A stretch of 55,806 bases of DNA from a virus. Taxonomy: Duplodnaviria; Caudoviricetes. Location of the stretch: positions 1 through 55,806 of IMG/VR virus record IMGVR_UViG_3300018890_000004; one strand, written 5' to 3'. The position numbers and the translations under genes were made by a program. Below are positions 30,803 to 55,806 of this stretch, in pieces. The notes beneath the pieces are model-generated. The model had not been told where the DNA came from. It did not search any database and saw nothing but the letters and a program-made list of their open reading frames with translations. Position 1 is the first letter of the stretch, and each line of letters opens with the position of its first letter.

Positions 30803-30810
30803 AGTACCCC

Positions 30811-35723: not shown

Positions 35724-35735
35724 AGCTGCTTTACT

Positions 35736-36071: not shown

Positions 36072-36535
36072 TGGATGCAGAGTTAATTAACATAAAGCTC
36101 AATGGTAAACTACTCACAAAAAACAGTAAAGCAGCTTTATTAAGAGAGGAAAAGTCAGCAGAGCTTTTAAAAATTCTGGTTATTGATGGAAGCGGGGGCG
36201 ATACTAAGCCAACAGTTTTAAACTGGATTACCTTGTCTTTATCATCAGTTTTGATATCAAATGTAGGATACGTTTTAAAGAACGATTTAGAGCGAATTAT
36301 CATCACACTGCCACTGGGAAAACAGGGTGATAGGTTATTGATTTATAACAAGGCTATAGGCGGTTTTAGGCTTGAGCAACGTGCAAACCAGCAGATAAGA
36401 TTAGGTAATAAATTAACAACTATAGGTGTACAAGGTGCTGTTATTTCTTATGAATCTGGCGATTTTTTAGAGTTCACATATCTAGATGGTATGTGGGTTT
36501 GTATGGATATGTTCGGTAATTTAGAGGTGTTATAA
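36068..36535 (+). CDS. putative tail fiber-associated protein
   Basis: ITLP....GD......GGFRL.Q...QQI..G motif, paralogous to the C-terminus of the next gene. Confidence 0.6.
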   Translation: MMDAELINIKLNGKLLTKNSKAALLREEKSAELLKILVIDGSGGDTKPTVLNWITLSLSSVLISNVGYVLKNDLERIIITLPLGKQGDRLLIYNKAIGGFRLEQRANQQIRLGNKLTTIGVQGAVISYESGDFLEFTYLDGMWVCMDMFGNLEVL

Positions 36536-37626: not shown

Positions 37627-37628
37627 TT

Positions 37629-38315: not shown

Positions 38316-38668
38316 TTAACATTGATTATGATACGGCTGCCGCTTTAGTAAAGCAGCTTTATCCGACTGCAAAAGACCCAATGCTAAATATTGAATTAGA
38401 GTTGACAAGGGGGCAAAGAAATTATCGCCCCTACATTGTAGCTGCAAAATTTATGTTAACTGAGTACAGGCGAATTGTAAAGGCTGAGGAGGTGACTTTT
38501 GAATATGACTTAGTAAGCACAATTAGAGGACTTTTGAACAGACAAAAAGAGTTGGATGAACAGGACACTATACCAGAGTCTCAGACCGTAGATGCGGCAC
38601 TTTTAGAACTATGTCAAGTGTGCGGTTCAGACAGCAGTGTTGTACCTTTGGGAGTTATTTTAATATGA
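38312..38668 (+). CDS. putative head-tail adaptor
   Basis: Helical 118-aa protein (YRPYIVAAK...I.KAEEV.F) next to the portal. Confidence 0.5.
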   Translation: MINIDYDTAAALVKQLYPTAKDPMLNIELELTRGQRNYRPYIVAAKFMLTEYRRIVKAEEVTFEYDLVSTIRGLLNRQKELDEQDTIPESQTVDAALLELCQVCGSDSSVVPLGVILI

Positions 38669-41348: not shown

Positions 41349-41349
41349 C

Positions 41350-41488
41350 CATGGTTGACCAAAATTTTTTAGATGAACTGTATCAATTAGAAGAGGAATG
41401 CACGCCGCTAGTCAGTAAAGATGTAAAGAAAAAACCCCCAAAAAATGATAAAGGTGATAAAATAGAAAAACCAAAAACTCAGGGTTAA
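41350..41488 (+). CDS. small charged peptide (45 aa, ATG at about 41351, not in ORF track)
   Basis: MVDQNFLDELYQLEEEC...KTQG fills the gap between GNAT and the next gene. Confidence 0.5.
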
Positions 41489-41492
41489 TGCC

Positions 41493-41723
41493 ATGTTTGA
41501 TGATTTTGCGGAATCGATGATCGAGTACATTAAAGCGGGGGATGCTTACGACTACGAAACATTTGTAACAAATTGTATGGGATTGGGCGACTCTGAAAAA
41601 GAAATGGCAGCCGCGATACTTCGCTATATGTCACCTATCACAGACGACCCCAACATAAAAATGAGATTCAAAATTTGTGTATCTGAATTGCAAAAGGTTG
41701 ATGCATACATCACTTACAGTTAG
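41493..41723 (+). CDS. hypothetical protein
   Basis: 76 aa, operon context. Confidence 0.65.
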   Translation: MFDDFAESMIEYIKAGDAYDYETFVTNCMGLGDSEKEMAAAILRYMSPITDDPNIKMRFKICVSELQKVDAYITYS

Positions 41724-42411
41724 TAAAGCACCTTTACTAAAATTTAATTGGGACGCTTTACCAAGTGAAATCTATTATGATTACAAGGTAAAGCGTTTTC
41801 GTTTTTCTGGAGGTTCCCCCGCTTCCCCGCAACGAGGAACCTTTATCAGTAGAGCCGATGCAATAGAACTACAGCGTAATTATTTAAGCCGTATCACGCG
41901 TGAATTTGTATCCTTGGCACCTCGTATAATTTCAGGTGAAATAGGAGTCTACAAAGAAGCAGGAGAACTTTTAAAAAAAATTCACTTGAGCAACACAATT
42001 ATAGAAGCGGGGGGCATAGACCGATTAACACAATCTCAGTTAGGCACTATAGGAAACATCTTAAAAAAACAATACTACGCGGGTAAAGATGATGAAACTG
42101 GCAAATCATACGGTCTAAAACACCTTTTTAAAGAGGTGGCAGCCACCCCCGATTATAGTAAATCAATGTTGACAAATAGGCTCACCATGTATGCAGAATC
42201 GGGCAAAATTTCAGGTTCAACTGTTAAGCAGTCTATAGAATTGCTCAATGGAAAAACCGAAATGAAACGCATACTTGGCGCTACTGATGCTCATTGTGAA
42301 GATTGTTTAAGATACGCGTCAGCAAGTTATCAACCAATAGGGGTTTTACCACTTCCTAAAACTGCGTGTAGGTGTCGCACAAGGTGCTTGTGTACTGTTG
42401 TATACCGCTAA
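41701..42411 (+). CDS. minor head protein (MuF-like)
   Basis: C-terminal HCEDC...LP.P...C.C...C.C motif and G.FISR N-terminal motif. Confidence 0.7.
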   Translation: MHTSLTVSKAPLLKFNWDALPSEIYYDYKVKRFRFSGGSPASPQRGTFISRADAIELQRNYLSRITREFVSLAPRIISGEIGVYKEAGELLKKIHLSNTIIEAGGIDRLTQSQLGTIGNILKKQYYAGKDDETGKSYGLKHLFKEVAATPDYSKSMLTNRLTMYAESGKISGSTVKQSIELLNGKTEMKRILGATDAHCEDCLRYASASYQPIGVLPLPKTACRCRTRCLCTVVYR

Positions 42412-42483
42412 TCTATCCAATTGCATATACAAACATCTAGAGGAATATGTTAAAATGTAAATACTCCTCTAGATATATTAATA

Positions 42484-42753
42484 ATGACACACCCCACAAA
42501 AGGTCAAAAAACAACTAGGGAAAAAGTAAATACTTCAAAGTCGAGAAAAGATAGAATTCTTGACTACATTAACAAGAATCACAACAAAAAGTTTTCAATT
42601 GTTGACATTTTTAACCAGTTCAGTTTTAACACTGATACGGGAACAATTCGAGGAATTTTAGAAGAATTGTACAAAGAACAGCTAATAGAATCAGAAATTG
42701 ATACCAGCCCTAAAGGTGGTAACACATTGTACTTTTCTAAAAATGCGTTGTAA
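42484..42753 (+). CDS. winged-helix DNA-binding protein
   Basis: RILDYI...S..DI......GTIRGILEEL....LIE......GG...YF. Confidence 0.65.
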   Translation: MTHPTKGQKTTREKVNTSKSRKDRILDYINKNHNKKFSIVDIFNQFSFNTDTGTIRGILEELYKEQLIESEIDTSPKGGNTLYFSKNAL

Positions 42754-42783
42754 TGGCTGATAGTCTAGAAGCGGGGGGCTGAT

Positions 42784-43617
42784 ATGTGGACAGAAGAAGA
42801 ATTAGACTTTGAAATAACTAAAGAAAAAGTTGCAGAGATGCAGCTACATCTGATAAAGCAACTGTATCCAGATGGTTTTTTTGACCGTATCAGCAATTTT
42901 GATTACGGGTTTCATGTAACTGTGGTAGCTGCTACGCCGTTACCCCAGCATCTGGTTTATTTGGGTATGCATCAATGTTACTCTACAGAGGCTGTTGCAT
43001 GGTCTTCTAAGCTCACAGAATCCGAATGTGGACAAATTGACGTTAAGAGACTTTTAGAGGGTGGCAAGGGTCACTATAGCCCCTATGAACACGCATCAAT
43101 TACTTTTGTGATTGAAGGTGTCAATCATGGCACCCTTCAGCAGTTGCTTAGGTCACGTATCGGCGTTAGTCCATCTGTACAGTCGTTTAGGTATACGTCA
43201 AACCATATTCTAGAAGCTGCCAGTGGAGAACGAGATATTGAAAAAGTTGTTTACATCCGTCCACCTGGCACATATCACGATAGGGAATCGGGAATTTACT
43301 CCTACGATCCATCAACAAGAGCAGAAGATTTGAGCCTGTGTAGCTTCCTAGTAAAGCACGTGGCAAAGCGTCTTAAAAACGGAATGCCCCCTGAGCAAGC
43401 CAGAGGACAGCTACCATTTGATTATCGGCAAAACGCCATAATTACCTATAACGCACGCTCTCTTATGGGATTTTTCGACCGTAGAAGCAAGCGTGATGCA
43501 CAAAATGAAATACAAATCTTAACTAAGTTGTTGATGGAAAAATTTATCTGTTGGGTACCGGAAACAGCAGAATACTACATGAAAAATAGGGCAGGTAAGG
43601 CTTTACTTTCTCCGTAG
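42784..43617 (+). CDS. thyX: FAD-dependent thymidylate synthase
   Basis: GHYSPYEH, Q..RSR..SPSVQSFRY, EQARG.LP, N.RSL..F...R....AQ.EI. Confidence 0.92.
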   Translation: MWTEEELDFEITKEKVAEMQLHLIKQLYPDGFFDRISNFDYGFHVTVVAATPLPQHLVYLGMHQCYSTEAVAWSSKLTESECGQIDVKRLLEGGKGHYSPYEHASITFVIEGVNHGTLQQLLRSRIGVSPSVQSFRYTSNHILEAASGERDIEKVVYIRPPGTYHDRESGIYSYDPSTRAEDLSLCSFLVKHVAKRLKNGMPPEQARGQLPFDYRQNAIITYNARSLMGFFDRRSKRDAQNEIQILTKLLMEKFICWVPETAEYYMKNRAGKALLSP

Positions 43618-43677
43618 AAAATGTTAGAATCATGTCAACCGCAACGGCAAACGCCGAAGCAAGCACCCTGATAGCTG

Positions 43678-43715
43678 AAAACCCCCTTATCTCTGAGTAG
43701 GATAAGGGGGTTTTT
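43678..43715. terminator. bidirectional terminator between convergent operons
   Basis: AAAACCCCTTATC-loop-GATAAGGGGGTTTTT. Confidence 0.85.
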
Positions 43716-43716
43716 C

Positions 43717-43950
43717 TCATTCAATCAGTTTTATCGGGTTCAGTGGCAACTTTGTAAACTGGTTGCCTATGTGGTAATCGGGGGGTTCCATCACCTTTCT
43801 CACAACCTCCAATTGCACCCCCGCTTCTATTATTGCCTGAGCGTGTTCTGGAATATCTGCCAAGTCTCCATTATCTGCTGCATAGCCAATTAGCTCAATC
43901 AGTCCTTTAATCTGGCTTAAATCCAATTGTACAGGGTGTAATCTTCTCAT
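43717..43950 (-). CDS. hypothetical protein
   Basis: ATGA overlap with the upstream gene. Confidence 0.7.
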   Translation of the reverse strand: MRRLHPVQLDLSQIKGLIELIGYAADNGDLADIPEHAQAIIEAGVQLEVVRKVMEPPDYHIGNQFTKLPLNPIKLIE

Positions 43951-44198
43951 GCTTCACTCCAAGTAACAACACCTTCTAATTTATATCTGCCTATGGGTGG
44001 CGGGGGCAATACGACGGGAGTCCAATACAGCACCTCATCAAAATTTAAAAACTGGTCAGTATATCCGTAGTTTAGAACCCTTTCACGCGTAGTTGTTCCC
44101 AAATGAACACCCAACGAACGGTCAATGTAGAAAATCAAATCACCCACATCGGGTTTTATTTCGCTCATCAGATGCCACACGCCATTAACGTTATCCAT
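43947..44198 (-). CDS. DUF551-like protein
   Basis: W...SE.KP...V.YW.P..LP.PP pattern. Confidence 0.6.
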   Translation of the reverse strand: MDNVNGVWHLMSEIKPDVGDLIFYIDRSLGVHLGTTTRERVLNYGYTDQFLNFDEVLYWTPVVLPPPPIGRYKLEGVVTWSEA

Positions 44199-44419
44199 TA
44201 TGCCCACCCTTCTATAGGTAATTCTGGAATGATTATCGGACACCAAAAAACAACAATTTCAGCGTTAATTAGCTTTTTTGATATAACCAGTTGAAAAAAC
44301 AATTGGTTATTAGTTTGCACAGCACACGCAATATGGATGTGTTTACCTTTGATAGCTATAAAAACCATGTCACCGTTGTTAGGTGTATCTGGAAAAAGCT
44401 TAATCCATTCTTGTTTCAT
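44198..44419 (-). CDS. DUF551-like protein
   Basis: EWIK...TP..GD.V...VVFWCP..IPELP, AAGGAG SD. Confidence 0.6.
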   Translation of the reverse strand: MKQEWIKLFPDTPNNGDMVFIAIKGKHIHIACAVQTNNQLFFQLVISKKLINAEIVVFWCPIIIPELPIEGWA

Positions 44420-44455
44420 AATCTCCTTGTAAGACCCCCTGAAGGGGTCTATATT

Positions 44456-44881
44456 TTACTTCTTGGTTGGACGTTTTCTAGTTGCTCTAGGTTTTGCTGC
44501 TGGTTTTTCAGTTTCTGTTGCAGTAGAAGCGGGGGGCGGTGTTGGCTCCTCTTTCACCTTGGTTTCAATGTTGATTTCTTGGTATCCGCCAGGGACAAAA
44601 GACCGTCTACCAGTCTTCTTAAAAAGTTGGTCAACTACATCGGCAATAAATTCCTGCTTTTCAATAATGAGTGTTAATAATTCCAAGTTTAAAAATAACT
44701 GTTCCTGGTTTTCCATGAAACAATCAGCACCCCTGTATGGTTCAAAAACATCATAAATCAATTCCTCTTTTATAAACGCCCTTGCATATTGAAAAACTTT
44801 ATCACTGATGAGGCTCTCCAAACCCATTTCAGAACAAATGTAACCGTTCTCTGTTTTATCAATTCGAGCTATTTTCGACAT
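44456..44881 (-). CDS. hypothetical protein
   Basis: Downstream of the minus-strand operator-promoter 44920-44948. Confidence 0.75.
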   Translation of the reverse strand: MSKIARIDKTENGYICSEMGLESLISDKVFQYARAFIKEELIYDVFEPYRGADCFMENQEQLFLNLELLTLIIEKQEFIADVVDQLFKKTGRRSFVPGGYQEINIETKVKEEPTPPPASTATETEKPAAKPRATRKRPTKK

Positions 44882-44950
44882 TTGAGTAAAGCACCTTTAC
44901 TACTTGGTTTACTTAATTAATACTAACGAACATCTAGACGATTGTCAAGG

Positions 44951-45358
44951 CTAATCTGAATATTTATTGATGATATATATCAACTCCTGTTTTGACTCTG
45001 TAAAGTAAAGTATTATAGCAGATTCCTCGCTCTTGACACCAAAAGTGTAGAACCTTTTTAACACTTTCCAGTTATCATCCTTTAGATATTTATGTTTGAC
45101 TAGACCATCCTCTACACCCCCTTGAAGGTTGCTTAAATCGGGGGGATGACCGGGAACAGGTTTGATATTAAATTGGAAGACCATAGAGTGAAATTCGGGG
45201 GGTATGGTCAAACCTGTAGTTGTGATGTACTGGTTAAATTGCTCTTGCCATTTCCTATAGTTTCCTATCGAGTGTGTCATATTTCCGTATTTCCCAAGCT
45301 GACCGCGTGGTTTGGGATGTGCTTTCATAGGTAGGAAAATTTTTCTTATAGTCATCAA
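44951..45358 (-). CDS. rusA: RusA-like Holliday junction resolvase
   Basis: P.PR at the N-terminus and PDLSNL.GGVEDGL......DDN catalytic motif. Confidence 0.8.
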   Translation of the reverse strand: MMTIRKIFLPMKAHPKPRGQLGKYGNMTHSIGNYRKWQEQFNQYITTTGLTIPPEFHSMVFQFNIKPVPGHPPDLSNLQGGVEDGLVKHKYLKDDNWKVLKRFYTFGVKSEESAIILYFTESKQELIYIINKYSD

Positions 45359-45560
45359 ACGTAAGCCCCCTTTGCTCTAAATACTTAATCAAAGCTAGTA
45401 AATCAGTCAGCTTAGTAGATGAGAAATTTGAAGATTCCCATCTACTAATTGAACCCAGTGATACACCAATTGCTTGAGCTACTTCACTCTGTGTTATGCC
45501 TGCTAGAGTGCGCTTTCTGACAATATCTTGAACTAGCCTAACTATGCTCTCTGATTGCAT
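45255..45560 (-). CDS. XRE-family HTH transcriptional regulator
   Basis: R.LAGITQSEVAQAIGVSLGSISRWES. Confidence 0.85.
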   Translation of the reverse strand: MQSESIVRLVQDIVRKRTLAGITQSEVAQAIGVSLGSISRWESSNFSSTKLTDLLALIKYLEQRGLTFDDYKKNFPTYESTSQTTRSAWEIRKYDTLDRKL

Positions 45561-46048
45561 AAGTAATCAATTACTTTTTGTAGAAGGAAGTGAGGAACAA
45601 ACCCCCCGCTTTTGTATCTCTCAGCAGCTTTTTTAACAGCCAACTCTTCATAGTATTTATTTTCATCCATAGTATAAGTAATTATAACATCGTCTATACA
45701 TTCATCACTTTTTTTTCTTTCAGGTTTATTTTGATAGCTGTGTATAAACTGTGTTATACGCTTACCCCATAAATGATAGTCGGAGTCATTTTTGTGAAAT
45801 TGAGCTTCTAACTGTTCCAAATCAAAGCTATCTTGACCAATGTCCAAAGGCTCAGATTTAGAAGGATGCTTGTCACCTGGGTAAGGAATCCATCCTTTCT
45901 TAATTAACCTGACACCATACAAATAAGATGTTAAATCGGGGGTGGGTGATGTTGGATATTCCCCCGCGTATTCAATCCACTTTTCCCCGTTATGTTTCCA
46001 AAGTTTGCAGGTATCTGAGTCTTCCGTTTTTCTTTTCTTAGCTGCCAT
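45542..46048 (-). CDS. hypothetical protein
   Basis: First gene after minus-strand operator-promoter 46075-46103. Confidence 0.7.
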   Translation of the reverse strand: MAAKKRKTEDSDTCKLWKHNGEKWIEYAGEYPTSPTPDLTSYLYGVRLIKKGWIPYPGDKHPSKSEPLDIGQDSFDLEQLEAQFHKNDSDYHLWGKRITQFIHSYQNKPERKKSDECIDDVIITYTMDENKYYEELAVKKAAERYKSGGFVPHFLLQKVIDYLCNQRA

Positions 46049-46173
46049 ATATAATCCCGTCGCGTTCTTTATCCATACTAACAATCATCTAGATGTTTGT
46101 CAAGCAGCTTTACCAAAAAAAATGCACCTTTGTTAGAGGTGCATGAGGGGAGGACATATTGTGGATGGAAAAT

Positions 46174-47649
46174 TTACCTAGCTGTAATCAGATGGTCGTC
46201 AGTCTCAATAACAGTAGGCTCTGAGGCTGACGGTGTTGCAGGTGGCTCTATAACTGGGATTTCTTCTTCGCTTGCAGTTGCTTCAGGTGCCACAGTGGTT
46301 GCACTTTTGGCATCAGTTACAACAGGTGGTAAAAACTTTTGAGTAGTTGCAGCAAACTTATGAAGCGTTTTGTGGTATTTGTCGTAATTGTCACCGCCAG
46401 CCTCTTTAATATCATCGGCAATTTTAGCGATGTCACTCATAGCAATGGTGACTAGCTCATTAATACCAGCAAACAGTGTGAGAACAGTATCAGCAGCTAA
46501 AACGTTTGTATGCTGCTTAACTAGCTCTAAACTGCTTTCTAAATGCTCCCTAACGTTTTTGACATTTTCAAGTTTTGCCACATCAGAAGGTATGCTGTAA
46601 ACCCGTGAAATAACTTGCTCAGCATCTTGCACATAACGCTCTTTAGTAACAGTAGGCTTGGGAGAAGCGCCACCTGTAGAACCCGGGGCGGGGGGAGTTG
46701 AACCTTCCGGAGAAGTAGAACCAGTACTACCCCCCGCTTTAGCTGCATCATCCTTGGCTTTTGCTTCCTCAGTCAAATCATTAAAATAGTCAATAATAGC
46801 ACTTTTGTAAATGCTGAAGTCTTCAAAAATTTCTACTTTGCCTTCTTTATGCTTTAGAGCGTTTGTTTGAGCCTTTATCCACAATGTGTCTAAATACTTA
46901 TCAATTGATTGATGCAGTTGTTGCTTATCTAAGCCAGGCTCAAACCCTGTTACTTTTTGTATTAGCGTTGCGGCTGCGTCAACACTGATTTTTTCATTTC
47001 TGATATATTCATGAAGCGTTGGGCTTCCATTTTCAATTACCGTGTTATATTGGCTGAGGTTTTGCTTTGTGCGCTTGAACATCAAACAAAGCTTACGAGT
47101 TGCTTCACCTCTAGCTTTCTTTTCATTCATGCCAGATGCAACAAATTCATTTTGAAATTGTATCTTAAGATTATAGGCTAAATTAGCTATATCATAAGGA
47201 TTATGTTTTTTTGTAAAGTCATTGGTTGATACCTGAAAATCAATAGCATCTTCAAGTGTCAACGGTTCTGTAAAGAGCTTATAGGGAACAAGCTTAAAAT
47301 TGTCATCTTTAAGCTCTAAAGTAACTTTGCTGTCTTTTTTCTCTTCACCACCCTCTACTTCTTGTTTTCTTTCAACCCATAACTCAAAAAGCGCTCTAGT
47401 GCGGGTGTTTCCTGAAACAATATATTTTATACCAGTTTCAGGGTCTTGCTCAACTGCAAAAGCCTCTTTTACTTCAATATCATGGTTAGTGTTAACCAGC
47501 GCCACACGCTTTTCAGCAACTGAATCGGTATCTGTAGTTTGACGAATATAAAACTCTGGGCGACAAAAAGCCCAAGTCTTATCTTCAAAAAATGCTTTAT
47601 GTAAATCACCCACTGAAATGTAAAACGTTTCTTCTGATAGTGTAGCCAT
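46174..47649 (-). CDS. ParB-like protein (ParB/Srx N-domain plus HTH)
   Basis: YIVSGNTRTRAL resembles the GxxRxxA patch. Followed by HTH-like KLCLMFKRTKQNLSQY and L..YI...KISVDAA. Confidence 0.65.
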   Translation of the reverse strand: MATLSEETFYISVGDLHKAFFEDKTWAFCRPEFYIRQTTDTDSVAEKRVALVNTNHDIEVKEAFAVEQDPETGIKYIVSGNTRTRALFELWVERKQEVEGGEEKKDSKVTLELKDDNFKLVPYKLFTEPLTLEDAIDFQVSTNDFTKKHNPYDIANLAYNLKIQFQNEFVASGMNEKKARGEATRKLCLMFKRTKQNLSQYNTVIENGSPTLHEYIRNEKISVDAAATLIQKVTGFEPGLDKQQLHQSIDKYLDTLWIKAQTNALKHKEGKVEIFEDFSIYKSAIIDYFNDLTEEAKAKDDAAKAGGSTGSTSPEGSTPPAPGSTGGASPKPTVTKERYVQDAEQVISRVYSIPSDVAKLENVKNVREHLESSLELVKQHTNVLAADTVLTLFAGINELVTIAMSDIAKIADDIKEAGGDNYDKYHKTLHKFAATTQKFLPPVVTDAKSATTVAPEATASEEEIPVIEPPATPSASEPTVIETDDHLITAR

Positions 47650-47873
47650 GGTTTTTCTTTCTCGTTCGTGTTTTTTCTGACTCTTAAATACTAACAGTGA
47701 TTACATAAAAAAAGCAATAGTTTATCCATAAATATTTATCTGTATAATCATCTATACGATAAGTAATACATATGCTATTTTTCATAATAATCAAGCAGCT
47801 TTACCAAAAATGTGTTAATAAAAAACCCCCGACTGTAGAAGCGGGGGGTAGTTTATGACCATTCGTATACATT

Positions 47874-48401
47874 CTAGTATGGCGGCTCTCCCATCATGTT
47901 GCTTTTGTCGTAGTGGCATACAAAGTAATCCCATGAGCCGTCTGAGGCTAAACCACAGCCTACACGGTTTGCTTTCAGCATTTGGGTGAAGTGTGCTACA
48001 AGTTCCCATCGTTGTGAGCCATCTTTGACTACATCAGGGAAAATTCCATACCGATAAAATTTAATTTCAGCGCCCCAAGAGTTGACCATATAAGCAAGGT
48101 CATAGCGTCCGGCTGTGCCTTGCCATAAGTTCTCACCTGGTCTACTGTGAATCAGTTTATGATGTACTGATGCCAGTTGTTTAGCCCAAGCATCGGCAGA
48201 AAGTGCTAGATTTTCATCCCATGCAATAGCCCCTAATCCCTGAGCATATCTATACTCGTTGTGAACGCTTAAAACAGTATTGATATCCACGGTCGCCCCC
48301 TCTCTAAATTCGTACCTATAAAACATTAATAGAGCTACCAATATTGCAGATATAGCAACATTGATAAGAATTATTCGCCTAGCGGTTAGCTTCATTGTCA
48401 A
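47874..48401 (-). CDS. CAP (SCP/PR-1) domain protein with N-terminal TM
   Basis: HN.YR...G...I.WD..LA..A..WA, GENL, W..E, HFTQM, VGCG, VCHY signatures. Confidence 0.9.
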   Translation of the reverse strand: MTMKLTARRIILINVAISAILVALLMFYRYEFREGATVDINTVLSVHNEYRYAQGLGAIAWDENLALSADAWAKQLASVHHKLIHSRPGENLWQGTAGRYDLAYMVNSWGAEIKFYRYGIFPDVVKDGSQRWELVAHFTQMLKANRVGCGLASDGSWDYFVCHYDKSNMMGEPPY

Positions 48402-48535
48402 GCAGCTTTACCAAAAATGACTATTGACAAATACTAGATTATGTGTTATAGGCTACCTCTCACTCATAAGGTAGAGGGTGATACACCAGAATCTAGATGA
48501 TAGTATATTCAGACGTTATTGTGATTAGCAGGATA

Positions 48536-49042
48536 ATGGCAAGGAAAGCAGTAGGAACCCCAACACTTTTCTTTAATATGCCCGTTGACCAGCAGGGAGG
48601 GCAAATAATCGCAGGCTTAAACAAGGGTAGGCTGAGCCTCTTTGATGACTTGGGTATGATTGGACGTTGGGTCTTCACATCATCCTTTGATGGGCGACAG
48701 AAGGTTAATGATTGGGAATTGGTGGGCGGCTTGCTACCTCCCACATCTGCAATGCCTGGTCAATTGTGGTATGAAGTCGGCACAAACCTTATCAAACAAC
48801 CTGGTCAACCAGTTGATGAAGGTTTCATAATCTATTACAAAGGGGAAATTGAATTTAAAACTGCAAAAGGTTCCAGCCGTTCACAGCTGATGATTCACAA
48901 AGATAGCAACTACAAAACGGCTCCAGGGTCTTATGGATGCCTTGTAGGGCTGGAAGAAGAATATGTGGATATGCGCGACACTTTTATCCAGGCTTGTGGA
49001 CATTTGAAACGCGTACGCATGGGTGGTGTATACAGTTTTTAA
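48536..49042 (+). CDS. putative L,D-transpeptidase-fold peptidoglycan enzyme (endolysin candidate)
   Basis: RSQLMIHKD.......GSYGCL matches the HxnSxGC catalytic motif. Confidence 0.6.
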   Translation: MARKAVGTPTLFFNMPVDQQGGQIIAGLNKGRLSLFDDLGMIGRWVFTSSFDGRQKVNDWELVGGLLPPTSAMPGQLWYEVGTNLIKQPGQPVDEGFIIYYKGEIEFKTAKGSSRSQLMIHKDSNYKTAPGSYGCLVGLEEEYVDMRDTFIQACGHLKRVRMGGVYSF

Positions 49043-49782
49043 TAAAAGTGAAATATGTAAGGATTCCGAAAACTGTAAGAATCCCCAAATTTGTCTGTCA
49101 CCCCTCTTAAAGCAGCTTCTATAGAGGGGTTGTCTTTTCCATCAGTAGAGTTGTAAAAAGCTACCGTATACCCGACAATATATCGAGGTTTACCCTGTTC
49201 AAAAGCAGAGTACAACGGACAAGCAGCAGCATGATTAAAATCAAACTTGGCAACGCCACGCCTAAAATAAACCAGCAACTCTGGTGTAATTTTATTGGAT
49301 AGACAACCACGCTCCGTCATAGTTTTGACCAGTGGCTCTAAAATTGTGTCTAAACCCTGTTCAAACGGTCTCAATGAGTCTAACTTATCCAAAGGCAATG
49401 ACCATGACCAGATGAGCGTTCCAGCGTTCTTATATTGAGGGTTTAATATCATGTTGCCAGTACTTCTATCATAAATAATTACGACAAAAGAAGACTTTAC
49501 ATCAACATATTCATCACGCAGACTTGCCAGGTTACGCCAATTTTTAACAGCCTGTTCCACATATTCAATATGAGTAAGCGGTTGCTGGCGAGTGATAAGC
49601 CTAACATTATATTGCTCACCCAATGTAGTATTTATCAAAACATAATAGGAAAGACCGCCAAAGGTCAAAACTACCAGCGTTACCAACAATAATTTTGCAA
49701 CCCACACTGAAAACTTGTCACCACGGGCGGGTAATAAATCCTTAATTAAGTCAAAAAGAGTTTGGATAAAACCTAGAAACAT
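49039..49782 (-). CDS. membrane protein with GAF-like soluble domain (holin candidate)
   Basis: One N-terminal TM, then AAACPLY...IVGYTVAFY GAF-like strands. Architecture resembles T4 holin T. Confidence 0.5.
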   Translation of the reverse strand: MFLGFIQTLFDLIKDLLPARGDKFSVWVAKLLLVTLVVLTFGGLSYYVLINTTLGEQYNVRLITRQQPLTHIEYVEQAVKNWRNLASLRDEYVDVKSSFVVIIYDRSTGNMILNPQYKNAGTLIWSWSLPLDKLDSLRPFEQGLDTILEPLVKTMTERGCLSNKITPELLVYFRRGVAKFDFNHAAACPLYSAFEQGKPRYIVGYTVAFYNSTDGKDNPSIEAALRGVTDKFGDSYSFRNPYIFHFY

Positions 49783-49852
49783 ACGCCAAACCTTTAATTA
49801 ATAAAACCCCCACAGAAGCGGGGGGTGGCTGGGAGTTATTACAAATGCGAGG

Positions 49853-50341
49853 TTATTTAATATCTATCTTAAACGTTCCCGGTAACGCATCGCCAGTGGC
49901 AGGGGCAACATCAATTGTATCGGGGGTTGTAGGGATGGGCAAAGGTGAAGGCAAAGGGGAATCAGAAGGCAAAGGTTGCTCAGGTGTCGGGATAGATGGA
50001 GCCAAACCAAGGATTGCAGTTTTAACAGATGTTAAAGTTTGCTTCTGAGTTTGGAGCATTTGAAGGGCTGACTGTATTTCTTGCTCATCGACATCACCGT
50101 CAAGCGCAGCCTGCAAAACATCTTTAATTTGAACGCTTGCACGGTCAACGGTATCAAGCACGTCAGCAGATGCTAAAACGTTAGCCTGGATACCTTGCAT
50201 GACATCTTGGAAATTTGCCATTGTTGCCACCTGTAAAATTTCAATCTTGGTGATTATTTTTGTAGTGTCGGCTGATATTTTGCGTAACAAACGTATAGCC
50301 TCAACTATGTCAAATACACCCTTAAACATATTCTGAATCAT
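49853..50341 (-). CDS. hypothetical helical protein with Pro-rich tail
   Basis: 162-aa ORF. The start may be internal (MANFQD). Confidence 0.65.
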   Translation of the reverse strand: MIQNMFKGVFDIVEAIRLLRKISADTTKIITKIEILQVATMANFQDVMQGIQANVLASADVLDTVDRASVQIKDVLQAALDGDVDEQEIQSALQMLQTQKQTLTSVKTAILGLAPSIPTPEQPLPSDSPLPSPLPIPTTPDTIDVAPATGDALPGTFKIDIK

Positions 50342-51024
50342 GACAATAATAAAAACAATAATTACATTTTAACAGTACTCAAAAATAACCAATTTTCTAA
50401 TAATTGACTATTTTTGAGTAAAGCAGCTTTATTCAGATTTAACCAGCCTTATCAAGATTATATGTTAACAATTTTCTAACGTAAGAACGCGATATATGTT
50501 CTATCTCTGCAATCTGTTTCTGAGTCATTTTTTCCTCATAGTACATATGTTTTATTCTCCTCACACGGTCAGCTTGCAACATTTTGTCCATAAAATACCT
50601 CCAAATACTGTTGACAAATTAAACTTATTGTGCATAGGGAAACACCATGTTAGTAGCCTTCACCATAGTACTACTTAGTATAAATACTTTCACAATTTAA
50701 TTTATTTTTTTGCATAGTAAAAAGCTTGACAAAATGCACGTGTTATAATATATGAAACCTCTTATGATGGGTGCATATATCAGAAACACTTATATTCCTT
50801 AACTAGGCGTGCAATTACCAAATACATAGGCATAACTTACAAAACCCATGTTTCTAGAGCATGGGTTTTTTTTGGCTTTTAAGGGGGTTCACCCTGCTAA
50901 ACGATGATTGACCCATAAACATAAAAAACCCCTGCTTAAGACGGCTTAGGCGGGGGCTGCTTGTCACTATGGATTGTTGACCGCCAACTGCTTGTGAGAA
51001 TAGCGATAGGCAGAATTATGACAC

Positions 51025-51514
51025 AAAAGCGGGGGTTTGAGGCTGCTTGTAACACATTCTCAATAAGGTTTTACGTACTACATACGCAGCAGTAAGGGTT
51101 TCAGCCCATGCCAGAAACATTTCCAGGTTTTTCCAGGTTTTTCCAAACTTTTCCAAGTTTCACTATTGAGAAAACCCTTATAAAGCGGGGGGTGTGGGTG
51201 TAATTTCCACAGTTCCAAGTTTGAAAGCGAAATCTTATATAGATATTTTTATGAATTTGATACACGTAGATTCCAAAACTAAAAATTCTATACATCAAAT
51301 CATAGTCTTCACGCGCATAGGTTACTAAAAATTCTTGGAAATCTGGAAAAGCCTTGCTGGTAAGGGTTATAAGTTGGAAATGCTTGGAAAAACCTGGAAT
51401 TTTCCTGGAAAACTTGGAAATGCTTGCTGTGTAAGGGTTTCAAAGAGGGTGTACGTTTGTACTAAAAATAAGTCAAACTTATCGTTTATGACCACCCCCA
51501 CACCCCCCGCTTCT
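51025..51514 (+). repeat. iteron cassette copy C
   Basis: Same architecture and shared blocks as copy A (TGTAACAC.ATTCTCAATAAG, ACTATTGAGAAAACCC, TTCACGCGCA, AAGGGTTATAAGTTGGAAA, CTGGAAAACTTGGAAATGCTT). Confidence 0.85.
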
Positions 51515-51704
51515 ACTATTGATAAGCCTTTGTTATTGAGTGACAGAAATCATTGACACGTTTGATATTATGTGATACTAAAACAAAGCACAAAAAAAGC
51601 CCCCATGCAGGAGGCAGATAGCTATCATGGATTATCATATCAGTGAACCGTGAAGCAGGTTAATCACCCTGCTTTTTTTCTTGACAATTTACTATACGTG
51701 TGAT

Positions 51705-51989
51705 ATGAAAACTAAAAATGTTCAAATGTCTCTCGTATTAACTAGAGCGTACAAAGTAGTATTGAATGAAATATATTTTGTAGTATGTACTATGAGCTTG
51801 AGTGCAAATAACTCTGTTGTCTACATTCAGGTTAATACTGACTGGTTGCCAGATGATAAATTTGCCGATTATAGCTACTTATTGACCGCAAAAGACAATC
51901 ATCTGCCTAGGCTGTTTATCAATGGCGCAAACAACACACCTCTAATAATGCCGTTTGATTTGGTCAAAGGACAGATATACCCCCAATAA
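51705..51989 (+). CDS. hypothetical protein
   Basis: ORF followed by a hairpin. Start uncertain. Confidence 0.5.
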   Translation: MKTKNVQMSLVLTRAYKVVLNEIYFVVCTMSLSANNSVVYIQVNTDWLPDDKFADYSYLLTAKDNHLPRLFINGANNTPLIMPFDLVKGQIYPQ

Positions 51990-52031
51990 AAAACCCCCCA
52001 TGAGGGAGGCTGATTGTGTAAAGGTGCTTGA

Positions 52032-52133
52032 CTAATTGGCGTAGTAAATAAATACCAGTTTTATCATTTCGCTTAGAGTTAAGTAAACTAAAGTGCCGAC
52101 GATTAGCAGTGAAATTTTGAAATAAGCGTCCAT
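52032..52133 (-). CDS. small hydrophobic peptide (33 aa, not in ORF track)
   Basis: GAGG SD. MDAYFKISLLIVGTLVYLTLSEMIKLVFIYYAN. Confidence 0.5.
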   Translation of the reverse strand: MDAYFKISLLIVGTLVYLTLSEMIKLVFIYYAN

Positions 52134-52187
52134 AATTAACCTCAGTGTGTAAGTTATCGTTTATCTAGGTTTCCCCCCGCTTCTGGC

Positions 52188-54713
52188 TTAAAAATCAGCC
52201 TCTTCTGCCACTTCATCACAAGGTAGCTTGATGATGATTCCTTTAAACCCGCGTACAAATTTACCGTCTACTTTTACTTTGCTATCCTTGCCTTTCTCTG
52301 GCATCAGTGACCATGAAATATTGTTGTCTGGTATCTCTGCTTTTTCTCTCAGGAATTGCGGTATTTTTGCGATTTTGCCTTTAATAGTTTCGTTTTGGGT
52401 AGATTCACCAATCTCTGTTTCTAACCATGTTTGGTAGGCGGTCTGCAACTCGTGGTTTGTTACTGTGTTATCTGGGTTGTCGGTGAATTGCAGACATTCA
52501 TTGATAAACATCAACACCTTATCATTTTGTACCAATGACTCTTGAAGTACCGTACGTGCTTCATCTGATTTTGCATAGGTTATGAAGTCCTGTACAGCGC
52601 GTTCGGCATCTTGCATAATAGCCCAATTGAAAATATCTTGGTAAATTTCAGGCTTGCCAAACTCTTCATCAACATCTACCAAGTCGGGGTTATACATTTC
52701 CTTTGTATGCTTTAACAGCACGACGCGACGGCGTATACCCCCATCATCAGAGTTAGGTATATAAAAATGGTCTTGAGTCGCTGTAGTGATACCTGCATAA
52801 AATTTGGCGTTGTAGGACGGTAGTCCTTTTTGTTCAATTTCTATGGTGATGTTTGCGTTGCCCGTCAGTTGCTTGAGCAGTTCCCAGCCTTTAAGGTCTG
52901 TCCTAAACTCATCGATAAACAGTGAAAATAGATTGTCTAGCGATTGATTAGCAAACCTATTTCCAGTGTCTGTCAACGTGTTGCCTCTTGCCGTGTAACC
53001 GAGCGTTCCCAAGCAGTTCTGTATGATTTGTCCTACAACTGTTTTCCCTGTGTTCGGCGTGCCATACACGCACAACATACGCTTTGTTTTGGTAGCTATG
53101 CCTAGACAGTTTACAATTATCCATGACGTGATGGCTTGACGCTGTATATCACTATATTTAATTTCTGTCAACCAATAGTTAAGATATTTAACACCGAGAG
53201 ACTCTTCAGTAACAGCGCGGTAGCTGATTTTACTACGCATAGTATTATAATTTGAGGGGTTGAAATTAGCTACAAATTCCTTTGTCTTGTAGTTAAAATC
53301 CCCGTTAGCCATGGGAATAATATCAGTGTTTCGCATTTCGTCAAAATCGCGCTTATCCTCCACTGAATCATAGCCGTCATAATACTTAATCAGTGAGCAT
53401 ACATAGGCGGCTATTTTTGGCGATGACAGTTCCCCCGCTTCTACCCCGTAATGGTTCTTAAGTGCGTATTTAACACAATCCCTATATACGTTAATTTCAG
53501 AGGGCTTTACGCGCCACACACCCGTTAGAAAATCGTAATAAATGTATCCATCCCTAGCACCCTTTTTAATTATTTTCACATAACTGCTAAGAATAGTCTC
53601 AACCTGCATAGTGAGGCTATCCGTTTTTTCTTTCTTTTTGGCTGCGCGTCGTTCTGCTATTTCAGCGCGTGCGCGGTCAAAATCAAAGCAATCAATTTTA
53701 AACCAACGGGCGATGTCGTCACACACTAGTTGAAAAGTTTCATAGTTACGGTCGTCATTCCATTCTATGCTTCCCCAATTCTTAGCGTGCAGCAAATTGC
53801 CGTAGTGATGCCAATATTTGATGATAGTTCCAGAGATGCCTCCCACTTGGTTAGTAAAGCGGGGGGGATAGTCAGCGTCAGCCCAGTATACGAAAAAGCC
53901 TGAGCCGTAATCTTTTTCTTTGTCTTCTGGACGGTGACCTCCCCACTTGTGAAAATTCTTTTTGTCTTTCGGTTGTTCTTCAAAATTATGGGGATGCAAC
54001 GCATAAAGGGTGTCAACCTCATAACTGTCACAGAGCTTAAGCCATATTTCCTTGTTTATCCACTTCAGCACCTGTGCTGTTATTCCTTCCCCCGCTTCGG
54101 CTGGTAAAGCTGCTTGATTATCTGGCTGTTTATCTTGTCCGTCATATGTTTTTATATCTATACCGTCTAAAGACACCTGCAAGAAAATATCAGGGTCTAG
54201 AGTAGCATTTTCATCTAGTATTGTTACAGAGTTGGCATCATATGCGCCAAAATAAATAGAGCCTGAATGATAGCGTGGGTCAGCATCTTTGTAATATAGA
54301 TTGATAATGACTTTCGCTATGTGTTGGTATTCTTCGGCACTTATGACCTTAGCGAGTTTGAAAACTAGCCTGTGTTTCTCGTTTACACCTGGTTGGTAAG
54401 ATGGGGTGTAGTACCACATACAGGCTTGGCTTGACCATGCCCCCGCCAATGTTTTAGATACTGGCGTGTCGTCGAAGTCTATAAACAGCCATTGAATACC
54501 AGTTACACCCTCTTCATCGGCTCGCCCGACTTTAATTCCTGGTTGAACTGTGTAACCATCTGCTATAATAGTGGCTAAGGCTTGTACATCAACCTTTAAG
54601 GTTTTCCAATATTCAACATTTAACTGCTCATTTGCGGTTTTTTTCAAAAGTTTTTTTGTAATATCGGGGGTGTTTCGGCAAGTATGGTTAACTTGTATAT
54701 CTACTAAACTCAT
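52188..54713 (-). CDS. primase-helicase (AEP/prim-pol-like N-terminus, D5/P4-type SF3 helicase)
   Basis: N-term FIDFD, YYTPS, KHRLVF. C-term Walker A GTPNTGKT, FIDE, LKQLTG, EQKG, GIRRR. Confidence 0.88.
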   Translation of the reverse strand: MSLVDIQVNHTCRNTPDITKKLLKKTANEQLNVEYWKTLKVDVQALATIIADGYTVQPGIKVGRADEEGVTGIQWLFIDFDDTPVSKTLAGAWSSQACMWYYTPSYQPGVNEKHRLVFKLAKVISAEEYQHIAKVIINLYYKDADPRYHSGSIYFGAYDANSVTILDENATLDPDIFLQVSLDGIDIKTYDGQDKQPDNQAALPAEAGEGITAQVLKWINKEIWLKLCDSYEVDTLYALHPHNFEEQPKDKKNFHKWGGHRPEDKEKDYGSGFFVYWADADYPPRFTNQVGGISGTIIKYWHHYGNLLHAKNWGSIEWNDDRNYETFQLVCDDIARWFKIDCFDFDRARAEIAERRAAKKKEKTDSLTMQVETILSSYVKIIKKGARDGYIYYDFLTGVWRVKPSEINVYRDCVKYALKNHYGVEAGELSSPKIAAYVCSLIKYYDGYDSVEDKRDFDEMRNTDIIPMANGDFNYKTKEFVANFNPSNYNTMRSKISYRAVTEESLGVKYLNYWLTEIKYSDIQRQAITSWIIVNCLGIATKTKRMLCVYGTPNTGKTVVGQIIQNCLGTLGYTARGNTLTDTGNRFANQSLDNLFSLFIDEFRTDLKGWELLKQLTGNANITIEIEQKGLPSYNAKFYAGITTATQDHFYIPNSDDGGIRRRVVLLKHTKEMYNPDLVDVDEEFGKPEIYQDIFNWAIMQDAERAVQDFITYAKSDEARTVLQESLVQNDKVLMFINECLQFTDNPDNTVTNHELQTAYQTWLETEIGESTQNETIKGKIAKIPQFLREKAEIPDNNISWSLMPEKGKDSKVKVDGKFVRGFKGIIIKLPCDEVAEEADF

Positions 54714-54843
54714 GACGGTCTCCTTAACTGAATCAAGAACTTTTAAACGCTAGTTGACGCTAGCGTTTTTTTTTGCTATCTTTAGTATATGCGATTGACT
54801 AGATGATTGTCTATAGCTAAGAAAAACAAAGAGAGGTTATGTA

Positions 54844-54990
54844 ATGCCAGTTACAAAGAGAAAGGTGGTAACATTACAGATAGTAATGACTGAACGGGAA
54901 GTTCAATTGTTAACATTGCTTGTAGAAACGCTGGGTGTATCATATAGTGCTATCATTGTTGAATGTGCCAAGCGTGCTATAGAAGACTAA
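54844..54990 (+). CDS. ribbon-helix-helix-like protein (48 aa, not in ORF track)
   Basis: MPVTKRKVVTLQIVMTEREVQLLTLLVETLGVSYSAIIVECAKRAIED, GAGG SD. Confidence 0.6.
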   Translation: MPVTKRKVVTLQIVMTEREVQLLTLLVETLGVSYSAIIVECAKRAIED

Positions 54991-55113
54991 ACACGCATAA
55001 GTGAAAACCGTTAAAAAGCTTATGGGGTAAGCTTTTTAAACAAGTCTGAACCAGTAAAGAAAATCATCAGTGTTCCCAGAGAACCGAAAACATACTTAAA
55101 CTATTGAGAGGTT

Positions 55114-55272
55114 ATGACCATGGCTGAGGGAGTTGTTAAAATGGCTAAAATAAACAAAGAAACTAAAGACAAACTTAAACAAAAGGCTGACGAACGGGGA
55201 TTGACCATGACTGAACTGGTAAAGGAACAGTTACGTCTGTTGTTAAAAGAGAATCAGTTGCCGACTATTTAG
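55114..55272 (+). CDS. ribbon-helix-helix-like protein (52 aa, not in ORF track)
   Basis: ...KMAKINKETKDKLKQKADERGLTMTELVKEQLRLLL, GAGG SD. Confidence 0.7.
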   Translation: MTMAEGVVKMAKINKETKDKLKQKADERGLTMTELVKEQLRLLLKENQLPTI

Positions 55273-55532
55273 GATTATCGTACTATATAGACGATTGTCT
55301 GTATATAACCGTATTTTCACTTACATTAACCATCACTTGCCCCCGCTTCTATTACTAGATAGCGGGTTTTTTTTATTTGTATAAAAATAAAAATTCAAAG
55401 ATGGTATATACCACATTATAACACACTTGTCAAGAGGATATTTACTGCTTTTTAAAAAAAAACTTTTTTGGTAAAGCTGCTTGACAAACGTCTAGACGTT
55501 CGTTAGTATATAGAAAGTTGAGAGACCAGAGG

Positions 55533-55763
55533 ATGACTACCAAAAAGACATCAGCAGCTAAAAAGCAAACAGTTGCAAAAACTACCAAGTCTAGGCAAAC
55601 TAGACAAACTCGCACCCTGACTTTAGACAAAGTACCGCTAGACGTTAGGGAGATAATCAAAAACAACAGAAGATTAGAGGAACGATGGCAGGATACTGTT
55701 ATCAGGCTGATAGAAGAACACGATTCATTAATTAGAAGAATAAAGCGAGGTATAGGTGTATAA
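55533..55763 (+). CDS. basic hypothetical early protein
   Basis: Downstream of operator-promoter 55481, GAGGA SD. Confidence 0.75.
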   Translation: MTTKKTSAAKKQTVAKTTKSRQTRQTRTLTLDKVPLDVREIIKNNRRLEERWQDTVIRLIEEHDSLIRRIKRGIGV

Positions 55764-55806
55764 GATACACAAAAGCGCTGACGGTTCGGAAATGCTTATC
55801 GCGCAA
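55680..55806. repeat. 127-bp terminal direct repeat (copy 2)
   Basis: Identical to 1-127. Confidence 0.95.

Follow-up and report, generated by a model that had tools for sequence, protein, structure and literature searches.

A strand-balanced, evenly spaced nine-letter word in a soil-crust phage genome and its possible reading by a D5-like primase-helicase

The start sites of known primases are short words of 3-5 nt on the template, and the longer 8-mer of phage NrS-1 proved dispensable (PMC8718748). Primase-polymerases belonging to the AEP (archaeo-eukaryotic primase) type read the template through a helix-bundle domain, recognizing an 8-mer plus GTG in NrS-1 and GTG in pRN1 ORF904 (PMC8718748). 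A second body of work concerns A-1 and N-1, phages that infect the same Nostoc strain, in which Chenard et al. (2016; PMC4916379) described asymmetric motifs, 43 in A-1 and 21 in N-1, keeping only copies at most 150 bp upstream of genes. The N-1 motif was a conserved 11-bp region and that of A-1 a two-part motif, neither was co-oriented with the genes, and the function was left open (PMC4916379). Here we analyzed the Caudoviricetes virus record IMGVR_UViG_3300018890_000004 (all 55,806 bases, hereafter the window), in which the nine-letter word AAGCGGGGG recurs along both strands and a gene at 52188-54713 encodes a D5-like primase-helicase. We consider primer start sites to be the best-supported reading of this word, although one to which we would give somewhat less than an even chance; on this reading its most likely reader is the N-terminal AEP part of the primase.

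Exact matches to AAGCGGGGG number 80 in the window, compared with a mean of 0.22 and a maximum of 2 in 100 dinucleotide shuffles. They divide into 40 forward and 40 reverse copies, interleaved throughout, which bears out the dispersal on both strands without polarity that had been claimed in a preliminary description of this DNA. The word is also sharply defined. Read backwards as a control pattern it gave 0/0 matches, its core AAGCGGG occurs 81 times as against 80 for the full word, and variants with one mismatch number only 18, where 4.9 are expected. Half of these variants (9/18) are AATCGGGGG, which may be a tolerated second form of the main word; its copies lie at 4233, 6443, 19179, 23966, 30401, 42146, 43776, 45136, and 45934. 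Around the nine invariant letters, three to four further positions are biased, giving the extended word (T/C)A(G/A)-AAGCGGGGG-(G): among the 80 copies, position -3 is T in 45 and C in 24, position -2 is A in 52, position -1 is G in 49 and A in 22, and position +9 is G in 40.

Considered one strand at a time, the copies are evenly spaced. Same-strand neighbors lie 1392 nt apart on average (medians 1180 and 1250 nt; largest gaps 3312 and 4773 nt), with coefficients of variation (CVs) of 0.55 and 0.56, where random placement gives 0.97 with a 1% quantile of 0.71, and just 2 of the 80 same-strand gaps are shorter than 300 nt against 15.1 expected. Copies on opposite strands approach one another freely: 33 of the 80 sites have an opposite-strand neighbor within 300 nt and 12 have one within 100 nt, the closest being 18 nt away. 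Successive copies do switch strand more often than chance would have it (53/79, p 0.003), an excess that arises because of the regular spacing within each strand. When the sites of one strand were rotated against those of the other, the mean alternation was 56.6 and the observed value 54 (p 0.88), and the combined-strand CV of 0.69 equaled the rotation mean of 0.69; coupling between the sites of the two strands was ruled out by this control. Along each strand there is thus an independent "ruler" of ~1.4 kb, an arrangement indicative of a reader to which a single strand, or a single direction of travel, is visible at any moment. Whole genomes of relatives obey the same rule with their own words, same-strand gaps below 300 nt numbering 0/84 in N-1 and 0/81 in A-1(L), with CVs of 0.42-0.70. 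With medians of 1.2-1.5 kb, the same-strand gaps are of a length typical for the Okazaki fragments of bacteria and phages.

To the genes of the window the word is largely indifferent. Genes were represented by a greedy longest-open-reading-frame set, made without a gene finder, of 88 open reading frames (ORFs) covering 90% of the sequence; 62 of the 80 copies are intragenic, 33 of them sense and 29 antisense, and 18 are intergenic. Intragenic copies fall mostly in two reading frames, E/K-A-G (24 copies) and P-A-S/Y (21 copies), which are the least costly to proteins. From the sense and antisense counts and this concentration in two frames it therefore follows that AAGCGGGGG is selected at the DNA level, that its sites are those at which the cost to proteins is lowest, and that the direction of transcription does not matter to it. 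Of the three copies that lie in the primase gene, one is in the disordered linker and another in a variable loop (Table 1). Recoding of a stop codon (TAG before AAGCGGGGG) was considered and rejected, because ORFs that stay open under table 11 contain the word in every frame and on either strand.

Inverted pairs of the word also build terminator-like hairpins. The two listed in Table 1, whose word copies are 18-19 nt apart, outrank all other terminator-like hairpins of the first 20 kb; further terminator-like stems that use the word lie at 1038-1058 and 5062-5079. The presence of the word in terminator stems looks like an economical double use of scarce intergenic space in an AT-rich genome. 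The T-runs of the hairpins at 7670-7697 and 9398-9424 are on the minus strand and the long ORFs they flank are on the plus strand, a layout that hints at termination of an antisense or bidirectional kind, or else at errors in the ORF set. We scanned for the hairpin form of the word (word, 4-30 nt, reverse word) in the genomes of 185,579 species, where the stretches fetched from among at least 119 listed held at most four copies, and in viral DNA, where 73 stretches matched and none of those fetched outside the window loci held more than four. These matches outside the window are ordinary terminator-like chance matches and give no lead to a host.

Relatives of the window carry words of their own. 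The phages matched by its family B DNA polymerase, namely YongM, A-1(L), A1, N-1, Elbi, and Dfl-JY23, infect Nostoc, Anabaena, and Dolichospermum. In stretches of 50 kb, A-1(L), Elbi, YongM, and Dfl-JY23 have TGACTCCGGGG(G) in common, at 55-78 copies per 50 kb, and the top-ranking word of N-1 is TGATTCCGGGG(G); the count of AAGCGGGGG in the stretches of N-1, A-1(L), and Elbi is zero. We infer that the motifs of Chenard et al. are the same as these two words. Three fragments from IMG/VR that are syntenic with the window (50-51% identity in the polymerase, 37-70% across replication and structural genes) carry TAGAGGCGGGG, also given as (T)AGAGGCGGGG(G), one letter from AAGCGGGGG, at 14-17 copies per 14-20 kb, and a provirus record of 76.5 kb, whose polymerase is 43% identical, has a looser word around CCAGGG. 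Each of the examined relatives with the replication module has a counterpart of the word, which ends in a run of G or close to one. All five words start pyrimidine-purine on the G-rich strand, which is the layout of a "cryptic" template base beside a purine-initiated primer. Within the polymerase gene polB, three word positions are common across the A-1 group, N-1 included; positions are not conserved between the window and its relatives, and over that distance the sites turn over while their density stays. The search that yielded the IMG/VR fragments and the provirus, a query with a PolB alignment, gave five loci, the records behind which are four in number and 26-81% complete. Queries with a single PolB sequence gave no loci among contigs, and primase queries, whether a single sequence or the 14-sequence alignment described below, gave nothing in viral, metagenome, and genome contigs that tblastn confirmed.

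The comparison of N-1 with A-1(L) is especially informative about the reader. In N-1 the counts are ~84 for its own word and 1 for that of the A-1 type, in A-1(L) they are 81 for its own and 0 for the N-1 type, and TGACTCCGGGG is common to phages of three host genera, Nostoc, Anabaena, and Dolichospermum. Of the 81 sites in A-1(L), 33 are in regions that do not align with N-1, 23 are in regions that align without covering the site, and 25 are covered; at the covered sites N-1 has its own version in 17, the unchanged word in 1, and no word in 7. The N-1 version at 17/25 of the covered sites therefore amounts to a concerted one-letter change of the whole set of sites, by which N-1 differs from the A-1 group. 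Words one letter apart at orthologous sites in two phages of the same host argue that the reader must be encoded by the phage and not by the host.

We next consider the primase-helicase as a candidate for this reader. The protein is an AEP primase fused to a superfamily 3 (SF3) helicase, with de novo priming as a predicted activity, and the architecture proposed for it earlier is upheld by conserved AEP-type residues, by Pfam and PHROG matches, and by the fold of an AlphaFold2 (AF2) model searched with Foldseek. From the N-terminus, it comprises an AEP-type region (residues ~1-188), a disordered linker (190-208), a middle segment that includes C228, H240, and H242, an SF3 ATPase (~506-700), and a C-terminal helical/beta domain. 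Pfam matches fall within residues 526-662 (DUF5906 at 3.2e-10 and 41.1 bits, cut-off 27.6; Parvo_NS1 at 4.8e-5 and 22.9 bits, cut-off 20), and the PHROG match is to "DNA primase" (1.5e-58). We found 16 homologues besides the protein of the window, all metagenomic, and aligned 13 of them (36-64% identity) with it; across these 14 sequences D79, D81, and H114 are conserved at 90% or more, and D145, C228, H240, and H242 are invariant. We take D79/D81, H114, and D145 to be AEP motifs I-III, and C228/H240/H242 may form a zinc-binding element. The AF2 model has a mean predicted local distance difference test score (pLDDT) of 82.9, and Foldseek relates it to the African swine fever virus (ASFV) PrimPol (8iqi, E 8.5e-17), the SaPI5 primase-helicase (7ola, 1.1e-16), and the poxvirus D5/E5 proteins (1e-14 to 1e-12), with TM-scores that are low (0.3-0.4) because the domains are differently arranged. 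No PDB sequence was matched significantly in a profile search (best E 0.055). The best match among phages is to Nostoc phage N-1, at 27% identity over 76% of the query.

By tblastn, the window and the A-1 group have only ~11 genes in common, namely five ORFs around a weakly matched HerA-type ATPase, a small HNH-like ORF, polB, RusA, two ORFs including one called "ParB family," and the primase; the tail and head genes of the window are unrelated to those of the group. When the ORFs of A-1(L) were compared with N-1 and with 50 kb each of Elbi, YongM, and Dfl-JY23, the N-1 primase was the strongest N-1-specific outlier among large proteins, at 0.34 bits/aa against 1.37-1.56 in the other three, while PolB, the helicase, and TerL are 78-92% identical across the comparison. 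The N-1 primase (L201:46094-48832) is chimeric. Over the N-terminal 430 aa its identity to the A-1(L)/Elbi primases is 43%, and over the C-terminal helicase half it is 19-21% to these and 31% to the primase of the window. Judged by this one informative swap, the word appears to track the N-terminal half of the primase.

Three cassettes of ~460-490 bp suggest where replication might begin. Each has ~8 copies of TTCCA on the left (four at 10-nt spacing), a center of 72-82% A+T, and ~8 copies of TGGAA on the right, an anatomy of helically spaced short repeats beside an AT-rich region that is characteristic of iteron origins. The geometry attributed to them earlier, with AAGCGGGGG on the top strand at the left end and on the bottom strand at the right end, is true of all three. 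The cassettes are 74-91% alike in their best stretches, with a mean column identity of 66%; the invariant columns include the iterons and the end words, and the 141-nt core of cassette 2 is 91% complementary to cassette 1. It is plausible that the cassettes are iteron or palindromic origins, their anatomy being the basis for this assignment. N-1 has a 561-nt inverted repeat (99% complementary, with an adjoining 176 nt at 96%) that bounds its 29-kb replication module, is rich in short repeated words of its own, and has the word CTAGTACAAA in common with the cassettes of the window. This repeat is the counterpart of the inverted repeats, 400-700 nt in length, that Shi et al. (2026 preprint, 10.64898/2026.02.14.705889) show on both sides of an invertible segment in phages of the A-1(L) type.

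The per-strand spacing of ~1.4 kb, the repulsion between same-strand copies, and the lack of coupling between strands fit sites at which priming serves forks of either direction. We hypothesize that the N-terminal AEP part of the 841-aa primase-helicase would read the word on the template strand and synthesize a primer that carries or abuts it. The copies would then serve as start sites for lagging-strand primers, whichever way the fork travels, the inward-facing copies at the cassette ends would prime the first strands at the likely origins; selection keeps about one copy per 1.4 kb on each strand. More broadly, in a clade that unites the Nostocales phages and this soil-crust phage through polB and a D5-like primase, the primase might start only at a 10-12-nt word that acts as an Okazaki ruler, with one site per 1.2-1.9 kb per strand and inward sites at palindromic origins, and word and primase might co-evolve such that ~80 sites are rewritten; this wider scenario is offered tentatively, as one that we would expect to fail rather more readily than to hold. 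The integrated model of the preliminary description, in which a sequence-specific primase works from several origins, remains the preferred account; its link of primase to word is indirect, and the cassettes could fire as origins in so far as their anatomy is a guide.

Several observations weigh against this account. The two homologues closest to the primase (64% and 58% identity) have no E-A-G at two of the three sites within the primase gene of the window, and their word or its positions may differ. The genes downstream of the N-1 primase diverge as well ("AP2" at 34% and A1L_66 at 44%, vs 59-78% and 67-70% elsewhere), as do a LuxR-type regulator, two small transcription-factor-like ORFs, and a ParB-like protein (46%). 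Because these neighbors and small DNA-binding proteins diverge in N-1 too, the co-variation does not single out the primase, and there is effectively one informative swap of word and primase, that of N-1, rather than many. The co-variation across relatives that was proposed earlier as a check is borne out to the extent that words differ by lineage and that N-1 combines a divergent primase with a changed word, and is weakened by the co-divergence of neighbors in that single case. Moreover, queries with the window and A-1(L) primases met no primase in the four incomplete records of the syntenic relatives and the provirus, and in one relative (L208) the first six word copies are all on one strand and less evenly placed than in the window. 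The word is also long. Its nine invariant and three to four biased letters exceed the 3-5 nt, at most 8, of primase sites, such that a strict requirement for 9-12 nt would be unprecedented; of the long-site precedents invoked in the preliminary description, the NrS-1 8-mer stands, although it is dispensable, and the primases covered by PMC8718748 include none with a site of 9-12 nt. Finally, a protective word of the Chi kind would give the same per-strand coverage statistics.

In that alternative the word would be a phage-encoded, Chi-like self-marker, at correctly oriented copies of which a translocase or nuclease is switched or stopped, such that phage DNA is spared or recombined and word-less host DNA is degraded. 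Its candidate readers are the HerA/FtsK-type ATPase (12952-14685) with its 466-aa partner, or the SNF2 helicase. Strand-specific, balanced, and even coverage is what would be required, from either end, to protect a genome that is circularly permuted; the HerA-like gene is, together with its partner and RusA, part of the small module common to the A-1 group; and a phage-encoded reader agrees with both this alternative and the primase. We nonetheless regard it as unlikely. No RecB/AddAB-type nuclease was seen among the window ORFs scanned, which gave only a weak HerA signal and the SNF2 helicase; the HerA signal is under the Pfam cut-off (17.2 vs 23.2 bits), and the partner has no recognizable family, with scores of 0.75 and TM <0.3 in an Atlas structure search. 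Neither protein is an N-1 outlier (62% and 66% identity to A-1(L), vs 67-88% in others). The enrichment of Chi is far below the ~360-fold of the 9-mer AAGCGGGGG over shuffles, and a Chi word specified by the host is contradicted by N-1 and A-1, which share a host and differ in their words.

Less probable still is a protein that binds the word in duplex DNA and organizes, silences, or compacts the genome, whether AP2-like, ParB-like, or a repressor of the stoperator type. The asymmetric motifs of A-1 and N-1 were proposed to be promoters or stoperators (Chenard et al. 2016; PMC4916379). The gene beside the A-1-group primase that its depositors called "AP2" co-diverges in N-1 (34% identity), and the HNH protein encoded at 1460-2002 of the window has a weak AP2 signal (0.0029, under the Pfam cut-off). 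A cyanobacterial HNH-AP2 domain is also said to bind runs of G/C. Set against this, the defining feature of the stoperators of cluster A mycobacteriophages, orientation with transcription, is missing from the 33 sense and 29 antisense copies, and a binder indifferent to orientation should space all sites evenly, whereas only same-strand copies repel and opposite ones lie down to 18 nt apart. For the stand-alone "AP2" protein of A-1 there is no clear orthologue in the window, the best E value of a custom hidden Markov model (HMM) built from the A-1-group proteins being 0.012 (for 1460-2002), and the proteins of A-1(L) and N-1 to which depositors gave the labels AP2 or HNH had no Pfam match to either at E 0.01.

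We think it very unlikely that each copy is the target of a phage nicking endonuclease or DNA-modifying enzyme and receives a nick or a modified base. HNH/GIY-like endonuclease genes at 1460-2002, 3324-4232, and 7734-8141, the HNH-like ORF common to the A-1 group (18929-19294), and methyltransferases annotated in relatives would supply such enzymes, but nicks at opposite copies 18-19 nt apart (7670/7689 and 9398/9416) would make a double-strand break, and both the enrichment and the even per-strand spacing would be left unexplained. The sites of methyltransferases are usually shorter than 9-12 contiguous specified bases. A word imposed by the host, be it an uptake sequence, a host Chi, or a mutational or repair bias like HIP1, is essentially excluded: AAGCGGGGG does resemble bacterial uptake sequences in how densely and evenly it is placed, in its balance between strands, and in its presence in terminator hairpins, but N-1 and A-1 share a host and differ in their words with almost no cross-occurrence, the A-1 word occurs in phages whose hosts are Nostoc, Anabaena, and Dolichospermum, the stretches fetched among the matches listed in the genome-wide hairpin scan had at most four copies, and HIP1 is absent (0 copies) from the window. 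Nor do the 40/40 interleaved copies show the polarity switching at defined points that marks the FtsK-orienting polar sequences (KOPS) and the SpoIIIE recognition sequences (SRS).

The record looks complete, with a 127-nt direct terminal repeat; its G+C content is ~40%, and GC skew tracks gene orientation only. PHROG matches identify a tape-measure protein, a large terminase, and a portal, and the replication set comprises the family B polymerase, an SNF2-type helicase (16458-18383), and the primase-helicase. The polB gene named earlier is thereby confirmed (19923-21896, 43-45% identity to Nostocales phage polymerases), whereas the single-stranded DNA-binding protein (SSB) candidate is not, none having been found among 20 ORFs scanned against PHROGs. 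Profile searches of PDB sequences with the proteins of the shared genes gave weak P-loop matches only. The features discussed here are collected in Table 1.

Table 1. Coordinates of the word copies, genes, hairpins, promoters, and cassettes in the 55,806-nt window.
Feature	Coordinates	Strand	Remarks
AAGCGGGGG set	1..55806	both	80 dispersed copies
AAGCGGGGG copy	52174..52182	-	6 nt past primase stop codon
AAGCGGGGG copy in primase gene	53432..53440	-	sense; E-A-G at residue ~425, variable among homologues
AAGCGGGGG copy in primase gene	53857..53865	+	antisense; overlies conserved P-P
AAGCGGGGG copy in primase gene	54089..54097	-	sense; disordered linker, residues ~205-208
D5-like primase-helicase, 841 aa	52188..54713	-	ATG start; Pfam, PHROG, AF2, Foldseek
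Family B DNA polymerase (polB)	19923..21896	+	43-45% identity to YongM, A-1(L), A1, N-1, Elbi, Dfl-JY23
Cassette 1 (putative origin)	5824..6281		word 5824(+)/6273(-), inward-facing; inverted TTCCA/TGGAA iterons, AT-rich center
Cassette 2 (putative origin)	28096..28562		word 28096(+)/28554(-), inward-facing; same anatomy; inverted vs cassettes 1 and 3
Cassette 3 (putative origin)	51027..51512		word 51027(+)/51504(-); extra + copy 51183; 0.7 kb from primase 3' end
Terminator-like hairpin from inverted AAGCGGGGG pair (7670/7689)	7670..7697	-	12 pairs then T-run
Terminator-like hairpin from inverted AAGCGGGGG pair (9398/9416)	9398..9424	-	11 pairs then T-run
Repeated promoters	1061-1121, 1960-2020, 2624-2684, 4258-4318, 8201-8261, 16388-16448, 19330-19390, 55464-55524, others		
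HNH_3 endonuclease with weak AP2-like C-terminal domain	1460..2002	+	Pfam HNH_3 1.9e-17
577-aa protein with weak HerA/FtsK-type ATPase signal and 466-aa partner of no known family	12952..16333	+	common to A-1/N-1 group
HNH-like small ORF	18929-19294		common to A-1 group
491-aa homologue of A-1(L) gene called ParB family by depositors	46174..47649	-	no Pfam match

In addition to these features, we identified a second over-represented word, the near-palindrome GT(A/C)AAGC(A/T)GCTT(T/G)AC, of which AAGCAGCTT and its complement occur 25 times (e.g. at 1014, 2634, 3223, 19340, 46102, and 55474). It often adjoins the -35 box of the repeated promoters and is also found within ORFs. These promoters, at least ten of them near-identical, consist of TTGACA, 17 nt, and TAGTAT, with a palindromic, operator-like ACAATCATCTAGATGATTGT between the hexamers. 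The early region has three genes that resemble homing endonucleases: 1460-2002, 3324-4232 (302 aa, with an HNH_3 domain at the C-terminus), and 7734-8141 (a T5orf172/MUG113 protein). A gene for a small helix-turn-helix (HTH) regulator lies at 45255-45560 on the minus strand.

Other repeats were seen among relatives and in a further cyanophage. In Pan4, a Pseudanabaena phage of 64% G+C, some GC-rich 10-mers recur to a modest degree, and their kinship with words of the AAGCGGGGG type is not obvious. In the provirus (L215, 20001-40000) a word is repeated five times, as CCCTGATAGG / CAGGGATTGA, and looks like a CRISPR-type repeat; a CRISPR array has been reported in N-1 (PMC4916379). The far ends of the syntenic relatives (L218, L219) are rich in CCACCACC and CCACCTCC, with up to 22 copies per 11 kb, and these stretches are probably a repetitive coding region; no such repeats are among the top k-mers of the window.

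DNA of the window is present in two of the three sequencing runs listed, X1 and X2, which belong to one study and are labeled biocrust metagenome, and no RNA dataset holding it is listed. Run X2 carries a variant of the phage, with 0.34 of the words sampled from window positions 2001-22000 on small, low-depth contigs; the 40 differences listed, of 102, include an extra G in the G-run at 2336, within the word copy 2333-2341. A megablast search with 25 kb of the window gave zero matches in 50,697 phage records. The known cyanobacterial octamer HIP1, GCGATCGC, numbers 27-35 per 50 kb in N-1, A-1(L), and Elbi and 3-4 per 14-20 kb in the three syntenic relatives, and because its count in the window is 0, the host may perhaps not be a HIP1-rich cyanobacterium.

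If the primase-site reading is true, lagging-strand initiation can be written into a genome, and these phages would be the first replicons known to hard-code their lagging-strand start sites. They would also offer a natural system in which primase specificity and ~80 sites change together, with A-1(L) and N-1 culturable on Anabaena/Nostoc, and the primase could serve as a sequence-addressable priming enzyme. Whatever the reader, a protein encoded by the phage makes entire genomes throughout a phage clade follow a spacing rule specific to each strand, motifs unexplained since 2016 gain a new interpretation, and the word provides a compact signature of this replication module in metagenomes.

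Among known systems, the sites of the T7 gp4, NrS-1, and pRN1 ORF904 primases resemble the word in being asymmetric; they are read on a single-stranded template by a domain beside the catalytic core and are likewise needed repeatedly on the lagging strand. They differ in being 3-5 nt long or a dispensable 8-mer, whereas the word of the window is fixed over 9-12 nt and the genome is seemingly shaped around it. To our knowledge, known primase sites are neither conspicuously enriched nor evenly spaced. The poxvirus D5/E5, ASFV C962R PrimPol, and SaPI5 enzymes match the fold of the window primase over the whole protein, with an AEP N-terminal domain and an SF3 helicase, at a sequence identity of just 11-18%, and we know of no long recognition word for any of them. 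The cassettes, in turn, recall palindromic and iteron origins such as lambda ori, P4 ori/crr, and herpesvirus oriS/oriL, in which helically spaced repeats flank an AT-rich center and several copies may be present per genome. In comparison with the A-1(L)-type inverted repeats, the window has three copies that are only 74-91% alike, and these seem too diverged for easy homologous inversion, yet their iterons and end words have been kept.

Chi, KOPS, SRS, and uptake sequences are likewise short, asymmetric, genome-wide words read by a translocating machine, and uptake sequences, like AAGCGGGGG, double as terminator hairpins. They are host-specified, with Chi and KOPS polarized toward the terminus, whereas AAGCGGGGG is specific to a phage lineage and balanced 40/40. 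A literature search for six word strings gave no paper on phage genome motifs among the matches listed, and "stoperator" in the cyanophage literature led only to Chenard et al. among those listed. The motifs of Chenard et al. (2016) come from the phage group to which the window belongs by polB and primase, and they are the nearest comparison. Here, the words are instead mostly intragenic, number ~81-84 per genome, are balanced between strands and regular along each, and are specific to lineages, and a different word sequence is found in a siphovirus-like relative as well. What is new relative to that work is the repulsion along each strand, the sister words in relatives, the evidence for a phage-encoded reader, and a word that appears to track the N-terminal half of the primase.

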